Positions 53,530-55,757 of a stretch of DNA of 64,000 nt are shown piece by piece. This DNA comes from Moniliella sp. 'wahieum' (taxonomy: Eukaryota): assembly GCA_003971905.1 (NCBI GenBank), contig RSEE01000056.1, positions 186,001 to 250,000 on the forward strand, given 5' to 3'. The notes beneath the pieces are model-generated. The model was not told the DNA's origin. It saw nothing but the letters and a program-made list of their open reading frames with translations, and made no database searches. The position numbers and the translations under genes were made by a program. The number at the start of each line of letters is the position of its first letter. Within the stretch, counting starts at the first letter, position 1.

Positions 53530-55757
53530 TTACCACCGACGGTTGTTGCCCATCGAGTAGGCGTTCGCACCCGAGCGTCCTCCACCCCGACCACGGAACC
53601 CACCGCGACCGCGACCAAACCGGCGACCACCGCCGCCGCCAGAGTAGCGCACCATGCCTTCCAACTCGGCCGGAACCTCTTGCTTGGCCTCGCGAAGAAT
53701 CTTGACCAACTCACGCGCCGATTTCGAGTTGTCGGAAGTGAAGAAGGTGATCGCGGTGCCCTTGGCCCCGGCGCGGCCAGTACGGCCAATCTGGTGAATG
53801 TAGTCCTCCACGTTGGGCATGTCGACATTGATCACATACGCAATGTCCTTGACGTCTGAAATAGCAAGGTAGGTCAGTAGAAGCCCTCAGGGCCCCATGC
53901 CCCTCCCACCCTGGAAACCGAGGAATCGGGCCAAAAGGAGGCGAGGCAAGAGAAACAGAGAACGGAAGCAAGGTCCAGAGCCACACGCTAAGCCCACTCC
54001 CGGAAGAGCAGACCAAGTGCAGTCCGGGATCAACCCTCCTTGTGCTCGGGCACAGGGGAGGGGGGCGAGGACCAGGTCCTCGCCCCCACCCCAGCCAAGC
54101 GGACCACATGGGAAACAAGCGCGACCCGTCAAAGAGACGGGGCCGCCTTGTCCAAGCCGCCATACCAGAACCAATCGAAGCGACACAATCGTCGCCAGTA
54201 CTGCGACCCCCCGTGGTGCACGAAACATTGGGGAGCCCAGCACTCAACAAGAGGCTCGAAGCACAGTCGGGTGGCACAGCGCCTTTTCTCGAACAAGCAC
54301 ACGCTTCCCCGCGCAACCGCTGGACCGAGGTCACAGAGGGCAGGGAAACATGGCTCGTACACCAGATACGACAGTAGGCAGAACATCTGCCGCCTGGTCA
54401 AGAAAGAGGAGCAAACAAGGTAAAAGAGAAGAAATCGGAACAACAAAGGACGCTTGCAAACGATTCAAAGAAATGGGGACATACCGAGACCACGCGAGGC
54501 CACCGCCGTGGCAACGAGAATGGGCGACGCACCCGACTTGAACTCGCGCAAAACCCAATCACGCTCACGTTGTTCCTTGTCGCCGTGAATGGCCAATGCA
54601 GGCCAGCCGTCCTCACGAAGGAACTTGGTGAGCTCGTCCGCGAGACGCTTCGTGTTGGTGAAAATGATGACCTTGGAGTTCTCTTGGCTGATCTTCTCAA
54701 GGTGCGTGACAAGCTTGCCCCGCTTCTCAAAGTCGGAAGTGACCTCGACGACTTGGGTCACGTTGTGGTTGGCCGACAACTCGTGGCTGCCAATGTTCAC
54801 CTGGTAAGGTTCCTGAAGGAAGTCGTGGGCCAAGCGCTGCACCTCCTTGGGCCAGGTGGCGGAGAACATGAGGGTTTGCCGGTCGGGCGGACCTGCTCGA
54901 GAATCTTGCGGATCTGCGGCTCAAAGCCCATGTCCAGCATACGGTCCGCCTCGTCCATGACAATGTACGTCACCCGACGCAGGTTGGTCTTGCCAATCTC
55001 GATCATGTCAATCAGACGACCGGGGGTGGCAACCACAATCTCAGCCCCGCGCGACAGCTCGCGAATCTGCTGCCCCTTGGGCACACCGCCGTACACCGCC
55101 GTGGTGCGAATGCGGCTGGAAGCACGGAACTTTCGCACTCGCCTTGGATCTGGTTGGCAACTCACGAGTGGGGCAAGGAAGAGGGCAATGGGACCGTCGC
55201 CGGGCTTGAGCAAAGGCTGGGCATTGACGTGCACCATGGCGGGCAACGCAAAGCCGATCGTCTTGCCGAACCAGTCTGAGCAATGGCGACCAAGTCGTGG
55301 CCGGACATGGCCATGGGCCAAGCCTGGCACTGGATAGGGGTGGGCGAGTCAAAGCCATCTTCTTCAGCTCCTTGGTAATGTAGTCGGGGAAGCCAGCCTC
55401 GTCAAAGGTTTGAATCGGACGGGGCATTGGCGCCTTGGATAGTCATGTTCTCATCACGGTACGCCTTGATCTCAGCATCCGAGCGGGCCGTGACAGAGGG
55501 AGCCTCGTGGTAAAAGTTCTTCTCAAACGAGGGCAGCTCTTGGCCAGACCAGTCAACAGAGCGGAGGTTGGCACCGAGCTGAGCCATGCGGTCGCCACCG
55601 CCATAGCTATCGGCGCATAGCTGTCGCCACCGTAGCCACCGCCGTAGCCACCGCCGCCATAGCCACCGCGGCCACCGCCGTAGCCGCCTCCATTGCGGCT
55701 GCCATAGCTGTCGTTGCCGTAGCCGCCGCGACCAGAGTTGTAACCACCGTAAGACAT
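53530..55757 (-). CDS. DBP2: DEAD-box RNA helicase Dbp2 (p68/DDX5 family)
   Basis: GGY-rich N-terminus, [70 protein letters not shown] (629-nt intron 53856-54484), [15 protein letters not shown] tail. Confidence 0.97.

Follow-up and report, generated by a model that had tools for sequence, protein, structure and literature searches.

Results

A long intron of DBP2 with a predicted fold and a proposed autoregulatory role

The DBP2 gene in the 64,000-nucleotide stretch of Moniliella sp. 'wahieum' DNA analysed here (henceforth 'the window') carries a 629-nt intron at its motif-V position, and the explanation we prefer, with evenly balanced confidence, is that this is a structured autoregulatory intron which acts mainly through retention and contains a masked weak acceptor. 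The initial annotation had placed a poison 3' splice site in this intron and had proposed that Dbp2 levels switch between that proximal acceptor, which would lead to nonsense-mediated decay (NMD), and the distal productive one; the results below support this switch in part. The positions that it gave (the donor at 54484, the TTGAC, the CAGs, the 98-nt intron, its peptide and the TGA at 54331) all proved correct on checking the minus strand. The gene and its parts are as follows.

55757-53530, minus strand: DBP2 gene, a Dbp2 orthologue by its Pfam DEAD and Helicase_C domains
54485..55757, minus strand: DBP2 5' coding exon (ATG to ...ASRGL, phase 1), with apparent assembly frameshifts; the tblastn match of the closest relative, protein P0003, starts at 55757
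53856..54484, minus strand: motif-V intron of 629 nt, predicted nested multibranch fold (MFE -275.6 kcal/mol, z -7.0)
53530..53855, minus strand: last coding exon with motif VI (HQIGRTGR) and RGG tail, by Pfam Helicase_C and translation

The assignment to DBP2 and to a conserved motif-V intron position stands on Pfam, tblastn and five usable orthologous introns, namely L116, L117, L118, L125 (partial) and L146 (ascomycete-type), all of which, like the window intron, lie in phase 1 directly after ASRGL. The gene combines the DEAD and Helicase_C domains with the RGG tail of Dbp2 orthologues, its best named fungal matches are Dbp2 proteins (83% to Violaceomyces palustris and 80% to Tilletia, Ustilaginomycotina), and it has the ATAVASRGL and HQIGRTGR variants in common with the Ustilaginomycotina matches. 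Judged by these sequence features, it is a Ustilaginomycotina-type DBP2 with a conserved long motif-V intron.

The 5' exon is interrupted by frameshifts that look like assembly deletions when set against a matching contig of sequencing run X1. Over window positions 54485-55189 this contig has no mismatches and four insertions, which restore a stop-free frame with 224/236 amino acids identical to P0003; it ends at the exon end, with two letters unplaced, includes neither the intron nor the last exon and gives no joint across the former. Relative to the matching contig, single-base deletions in the exon lie at 54883, 55130, 55157, 55169 and 55426-55447. The window is thus probably an error-prone assembly, so that other frameshifts in it are to be doubted and, since such deletions occur in this very gene, the long intron may also contain a small indel; its nt 88-141 align gap-free to P0003 (as back-translated peptide).

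Among the neighbouring genes, Pfam identified a second DEAD/ResIII helicase (40693-42045, minus strand), a mitochondrial carrier (45328-45930, minus strand), a thiamine-pyrophosphate enzyme (50300-52370, plus strand), which we take to be pyruvate-decarboxylase-like, an EF-hand light-chain-like gene (58107-58640, minus strand) and an ERGIC/ERV vesicle gene (59335-60731, minus strand). Two frames at 56123-57099 (plus strand), divergent from DBP2, had no Pfam match.

The proximal acceptor is the best internal site but has a weak branch

The splice signals of the long intron, in order from its 5' end, are listed here.

54479..54484, minus strand: 5' splice donor GTATGT, score 8.5 against 6.6-12.3 for 15 candidate donors
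54402..54478, minus strand: pyrimidine-rich tract, predicted to supply the 5' arms of long-range helices
54397..54401, minus strand: weak proximal branch-like TTGAC, A at 54398, score 4.5
54394..54396, minus strand: CAG 4 nt from the branch A, an unlikely acceptor by spacing and frame
54387..54389, minus strand: candidate proximal acceptor CAG, followed by ATGT, from sequence and branch score
54331..54386, minus strand: would-be poison reading frame to TGA 54333-54331, a stop 801 nt upstream of the normal stop
53856..53879, minus strand: distal branch TACTGAC (53879-53873) and productive acceptor CAG ending at 53856; branch score 10.5, predicted largely open

If the donor at 54484 is joined to 54387, 98 nt are lost and translation continues as [27 protein letters not shown] up to the TGA at 54333-54331. 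With distal splicing the sequence is [12 protein letters not shown]...[10 protein letters not shown], the normal C-terminus, and plain intron retention gives a stop after GMSPFL. As a yardstick we used 15 candidate introns of the window, which were picked on consensus signals, only some having an open spliced frame, so that their scores are biased upward. They measure 46-108 nt, compared with 629 nt for the DBP2 intron, and are 54-88% pyrimidine; the proximal 98-nt unit falls within both ranges, which bears out its description as normal-sized, and the tract of ~80 nt reported in the initial annotation is indeed 78% pyrimidine over intron nt 7-86. The branch is where that description needs qualifying: the TTGAC is present, but its score of 4.5 lies below those of all 15 references (6.7-10.8), the distal branch reaching 10.5. 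With regard to the two acceptors named, 54387 is the top-scoring of 21 internal AGs and the only one that combines YTRAC with YAG. The AG at 54394 is not a second poison site, because only 4 nt separate it from the branch A, where the 15 candidates have 10-22 nt, and because splicing there would give a different frame, open to 53711.

We estimated how often a proximal site of this quality arises by chance. A YAG at nt 46-130 with an equal or better branch occurred in 26/500 shuffles of the whole intron, 52/500 shuffles of its first 140 nt and at 176/2000 random anchors in the window, that is, with a chance of 5-10%. The claimed mimicry of the true junction also holds in that AG|ATGT is present and AYGT follows only 14 of the 3245 YAGs in the window, a feature noticed post hoc; the looser pattern of a branch followed by AG|AYGT occurs four times on the two window strands taken together, and two of these occurrences are in the DBP2 intron.

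Other arrangements within the intron were considered. A poison cassette exon is unlikely because the best internal donor scores 4.3, short of the reference range of 6.6-12.3; C/D boxes were sought and rejected; and the frame 53858-54397, taken as coding, matched among 1.84 billion representatives a single 2515-aa repetitive protein and was discarded. The 629 nt contain no TNAAAC (Mmi1) motif. Elsewhere in the window, a candidate 91-nt intron at 47860-47950 (plus strand) has a GTAAGT donor and a TTGAC branch and no open spliced frame across it; if real, it would mean that the organism is able to use a TTGAC branch.

The proximal site is predicted to be buried and the distal site open

The intron is predicted to be strongly folded into a nested multibranch structure: none of 20 shuffles was as stable as the whole intron, its tiles have z values of -4.6, -6.2 and -3.5 compared with -2.1 to +1.5 for 26 other tiles, and 69% of it is predicted to be paired. 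Every helix given below is a prediction, while the signals, scores and isoform frames above are read from the DNA.

54361..54398, minus strand: acceptor-masking stem-loop, predicted 54398-54387 with 54374-54361, 11 bp, mean p 0.62
54293..54358, minus strand: predicted 19-bp helix with apical hairpin, mean p 0.93, local z -4.0
54044..54100, minus strand: predicted 23-bp G+C-rich hairpin, mean p 0.91, local z -5.2
54466-54448/53976-53960 and 54439-54425/54037-54023, minus strand: predicted long-range helices of the tract
54420-54415/54043-54038 and 54412-54399/54291-54279, minus strand: further predicted long-range helices of the tract

The predicted masking stem, of 11 bp with a 12-nt loop within the multibranch fold, covers the branch A and both CAGs, and an alternative short hairpin (54391-54377) is predicted to bury the AG likewise, so that the AG at 54387 has a predicted unpaired probability of <=0.01. 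Pair probabilities in the tract's long-range helices average 0.89-0.96 (prediction only). Opening the proximal site would cost 14.4-16.6 kcal/mol, as against 2.7-3.7 kcal/mol for the distal site and <=10.7 kcal/mol in 14 of the 15 reference acceptors. Burial of the proximal AG is nonetheless not special, because 15 of the 21 internal AGs are equally paired and its opening cost ranks 5th of 21. The donor (54484-54478) is also predicted to pair with the distal branch (53875-53869) over 6 bp (mean p 0.69); this pairing is possibly an inhibitory fold, or an artefact.

The acceptor block is conserved, by back-translation, in the closest relative

The window protein and P0003 are identical at 122/130 amino acids. 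P0003 and its cluster are read-through translations that extend 59 codons into the intron, and the DNA of this relative was accordingly inferred from the peptide by back-translation. When back-translated, the tail matches intron nt 1-180 much more closely than shuffled sequences do (z about 12; 30 shuffles); across nine read-through tails treated in this way, seven were uninformative (z -0.4 to 2.4) and the remaining two form one cluster. Changes forced by the P0003 peptide relative to the window number 0-1 in the 8 tract codons, 3 in the 13 codons of the stem block and 5 in the next 5 codons, which form an arm of the 19-bp helix. The acceptor block, loop included, therefore appears better conserved than the neighbouring helix arm. 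Of the three changes in the block, one affects the loop, one a bulge and one turns a G.U into an A-U pair; the compatible changes at paired sites are all transitions (4 of 6).

The splice signals themselves fare unequally in P0003. CAG|ATGT is compatible with its peptide, the AG falling in an Arg codon, and is no more than compatible because the relative's DNA was derived at the peptide level. TTGAC is not encodable at its place; a YTRAY can be encoded at one position only, 6 nt from the AG, which is closer than in any reference intron. Many database Dbp2 entries among P0003-P0246 are mis-predicted read-throughs into the motif-V intron, and such tails constitute a minable record of intron 5' ends.

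Distant orthologous introns lack the proximal site, and the complete Ustilaginomycotina-type ones share a predicted 5'-end pairing

The orthologous introns came from pattern scans. Scanning metagenomes gave 26 matches, namely 7 Dbp2 genes, 2 other helicases and 17 chance matches; three of the 7 (L117, L123 and L141) are one sequence and another (L132) includes only 20 nt of intron. A genome scan gave 16 matches with one fungal Dbp2 fragment (L146), and viral scans for the donor motif and hairpin gave none; prokaryote-type helicase motif loci were set aside. Presumably L116 and L117 are Malassezia-like; they are identical to the window protein at 115/130 amino acids, and their introns have no significant similarity to its intron. 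The read-through of L118 matches a Tilletia protein (compared by eye). L146 (CBDCCT010000002.1, 161982-168011) is a fungal intron-containing fragment in a contig titled Trueperaceae bacterium, which is probably a chimeric long-read assembly. In L116 the branch is 43 nt from the acceptor across a GT repeat, and in L116 and L117 the long intron is closely followed by another, tiny one that is absent from the window gene.

Compared with the five orthologous introns, the window intron had no similarity to four and only a pyrimidine-run match to L125. Conservation of the proximal acceptor among relatives, one of the two points that the initial annotation named as decisive, was not borne out at this distance: a proximal YTRAC with YAG was found in the first 140 nt of 0/5 orthologous introns, what P0003 keeps being the block and not the TTGAC. 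The relaxed YTRAY with YAG occurs in 1/5 (TTGAT and CAG at nt 104 of L117; 42/240 random anchors by chance), and in L118 and L125, which also have a pyrimidine tract, the first CAG (nt 88 and 109, respectively) lacks a branch. Further inside, L117 has at intron nt 267-285 (locus 1358-1376, plus strand) a TTGAC-N8-AG|ACGT with the spacing and exon-start mimicry of the window's proximal site and a GAG instead of a YAG acceptor; its branch is predicted paired and its AG open, and a loose pattern of this kind arose in 54/1000 shuffled sets. Searching with the proximal-frame peptide brought up 13 candidates, all of them with E above 10, and inspection by eye of the 240 homologues listed found no convincing proximal-acceptor tail, the non-canonical tails among them being mostly plain read-through into the intron. 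No Rfam family matched the five orthologous loci.

What the distant introns do share with the window is predicted long-range pairing of the 5' end. This exceeded all shuffles in the window (25.2 vs <=18.6, 8 shuffles), L116 (29.1 vs 24.1, 12 shuffles), L117 (40.2 vs 20.5, 12 shuffles) and L118 (21.3 vs 8.3, 8 shuffles), that is, in 4/4 complete Ustilaginomycotina-type introns (8-12 shuffles each). In the ascomycete-type L146 it was not above shuffles (3/12 higher). The donor-to-branch path was not shorter than in shuffles (window 41 vs 14-32), and whole-intron z ranged from 0.7 to -6.7, with 0.7 in L116, -0.8 in L146, -2.3 in L117 and -1.8 in L125.

Discussion

Relation to known regulatory introns

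Regulation of DBP2 through its own intron has precedent. Saccharomyces cerevisiae DBP2 is reported to be autoregulated through inhibited splicing (Barta and Iggo 1995, cited in PMC4695336 and PMC12311795), and Schizosaccharomyces pombe dbp2 intron 2 to act by retention and Mmi1/exosome nuclear decay (PMC4695336, PMC12311795); how Dbp2 senses its own level via the intron is called open in the S. pombe paper (PMC4695336). The appeal to yeast autoregulation in the initial annotation is thus justified with respect to the intron, but the mechanism described in those accounts is retention with nuclear decay and not an alternative acceptor, which the passages on yeast DBP2 introns available to us do not mention and for which the window has a candidate. 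The window intron belongs to the same gene family as the yeast introns and is likewise long and conserved in position and length, the lowering of expression being a feature described for the yeasts; the window intron has no TNAAAC (Mmi1) motif. Its predicted long-range stem joining the 5' end to the 3' part resembles the zipper-stem splicing enhancer of S. cerevisiae RPL7B, which is reported to be switched off by the gene's own product (PMC12311795), and disabling by the gene's own product is proposed here too. In RPL7B, by the same account, the branch departs from the consensus and the product acts by binding to an alternative structure, whereas the window intron has a consensus distal branch and its effector would be an enzyme that unwinds RNA.

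The plant DEAD motif is the other relevant precedent. In DRH1/RH14 and RH46, alternative site use, NMD and helicase dependence are reported as demonstrated, and the motif is described as a single hairpin of 19-20 bp, with a loop of 3-5 nt, which shows covariation and is conserved throughout the land plants (PMC12218528; 10.64898/2026.01.23.701338). Shared with the plant system as presented there are a DDX5-like helicase gene, a long intron, an internal 3' splice site in a stem (here a predicted one) and splicing to the internal site (here a candidate) that gives a premature stop and a long 3' UTR. The window stem differs in having 11 bp and a 12-nt loop within a multibranch fold, in being traced to one relative and in its fungal host, while the adjoining 19-bp helix contains no YAG acceptor with branch; because its hairpin shape is not the single 19-20 bp hairpin of the family, the window intron is not a member of it. 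By analogy, the intron possibly works like a DBP2 regulatory intron and in a manner similar to the plant DEAD motif, and it may plausibly be a fungal form of the self-limiting switch for which yeasts and plants already provide examples. Open-access text yielded no description of a basidiomycete DBP2 intron with an alternative acceptor or a structure, the available parts of PMC12511879 and PMC11613528 hold nothing on such a site, and DBP2 does not occur in the available text of PMC8216456 (17 fungal RNAs).

A model for the intron and its alternatives

In the model that we prefer, low Dbp2 activity would leave the long-range helices free to close, joining the pyrimidine-rich start of the intron to its 3' part like a zipper. 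So folded, the RNA would bring the donor before the consensus branch and acceptor at 53879-53856, which would stay open, and would hide the tract, the TTGAC with its weak score and the CAG at 54387; the 98-nt intron would therefore go unrecognised and full-length Dbp2 would be made. Excess Dbp2 would remodel the helices co-transcriptionally, distal splicing would fall, and the main product would be the retained pre-mRNA, with its stop after GMSPFL, which would undergo nuclear decay or be translated poorly. Splicing to the exposed CAG at 54387, whose early stop would make an NMD substrate, would be at most a secondary, lineage-restricted outlet. Sensing of structure by Dbp2 and a mainly-retention output are suggested by the yeast and plant work. 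The model agrees with the strong fold predicted for the intron, with a predicted buried proximal and open distal site, with 5 of 5 orthologues lacking proximal YTRAC and YAG, and with a predicted zipper that is shared although the introns of the window and of L116, L117 and L118 have no alignable sequence in common. Against it, the helices come from prediction with 8-12 shuffles per intron, L146 and the path length do not support it, and whole-intron z values are unremarkable in L116 and L146 and modest in L117 and L125.

The conserved acceptor block and the rare AG|AYGT mimicry favour a real role for the acceptor and also count against this model. A rival we regard as possible and no better than tentative. 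Under it the masking stem would be a helicase sensor like that of the plant DEAD motif: excess Dbp2 would open it together with the helix over the branch, the spliceosome would define the normal-sized 98-nt intron, and the resulting message, with a stop after 18 codons, no motif VI and >800 nt of extra 3' UTR, would be degraded by NMD. The logic is the one reported for plant DRH1/RH46, and the 11-bp stem lies within the 10-15 bp that DEAD-box proteins are stated to unwind (10.64898/2026.01.23.701338). It is also favoured by the standing of 54387 as the best internal AG and only YTRAC with YAG, by the fit of its length, pyrimidine content and branch distance to the window's candidate introns, by burial of the AG in both alternative predicted folds, by the fit of P0003 to nt 1-180 with stem-block changes in the loop, the bulge and a G.U-to-A-U pair, and by the scarcity of the branch-to-AG|AYGT pattern together with its GAG version in L117. 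Such an outlet would work in a basidiomycete, given that in Cryptococcus 52% of frameshifting alternative-site events are reported to increase in upf1 and 98% of retention events not to do so (PMC5006051); since retained introns there mostly escape NMD and frameshifting sites do not, switching off by way of an alternative acceptor would be more effective. The difficulties are that the site alone has a 5-10% chance of arising, that its burial is shared by most internal AGs, that P0003 cannot encode TTGAC at that place and offers only a YTRAY 6 nt from an AG compatible at the peptide level, with compatible paired-site changes that are all transitions, and that 0/5 orthologues have a proximal YTRAC with YAG.

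Another alternative is a cryptic site present by chance, namely a YAG that comes first after a pyrimidine tract of the usual fungal kind and by accident has a near-branch upstream; it would be buried only since most of the intron is paired and, apart from being kept silent, would have no regulatory part. The 5-10% chance, the 69% pairing that hides 15/21 AGs, and the tracts of L118 and L125 with a first CAG and no branch all agree with it; we hold it to be improbable in view of sequence conservation that appears to peak over the acceptor block in P0003 and of AG|AYGT following only 14/3245 YAGs. Least probable of all, and very much so, is that conservation and folding serve a processed H/ACA-like non-coding RNA hosted by the intron, the layout of which would be as follows.

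54358-54146, minus strand: H/ACA-like layout of hairpin 54358-54293, box 54289-54284, hairpin about 54274-54152 and ACA 54151

The intron's only ANANNA lies 3 nt after the first hairpin and, of the two ACAs in the intron, one comes immediately after the second hairpin, 16 nt below an upper stem, as such an RNA would have it. Yet the first hairpin has no pocket, the pocket of the second is predicted paired, both boxes are paired in the predicted whole-intron fold, Rfam gave no match at gathering score (18 weak hairpin matches at E up to 10, none named H/ACA), and the five orthologues offer no convincing layout apart from one doubtful match in L117.

Implications

The locus is a small testable fungal candidate, with one AG, one 11-bp stem and one zipper, and it separates two models, retention after unzipping and a poison acceptor with NMD. 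If the acceptor is not used, the locus is one more structured DBP2 intron; if it is used and its use depends on the helicase, the plant mechanism extends to fungi. It would then appear, and we offer this tentatively, that a fungal lineage independently built a helicase-activity sensor in which a stem-buried decoy acceptor copying the true junction is opened by Dbp2 and its product destroyed by NMD. Were that reading true, structure-gated poison acceptors would be a recurrent, convergent (or ancestral) form of control in the DDX5/Dbp2 family, and would supply a mechanism that has been missing for the yeast autoregulation reported in 1995.
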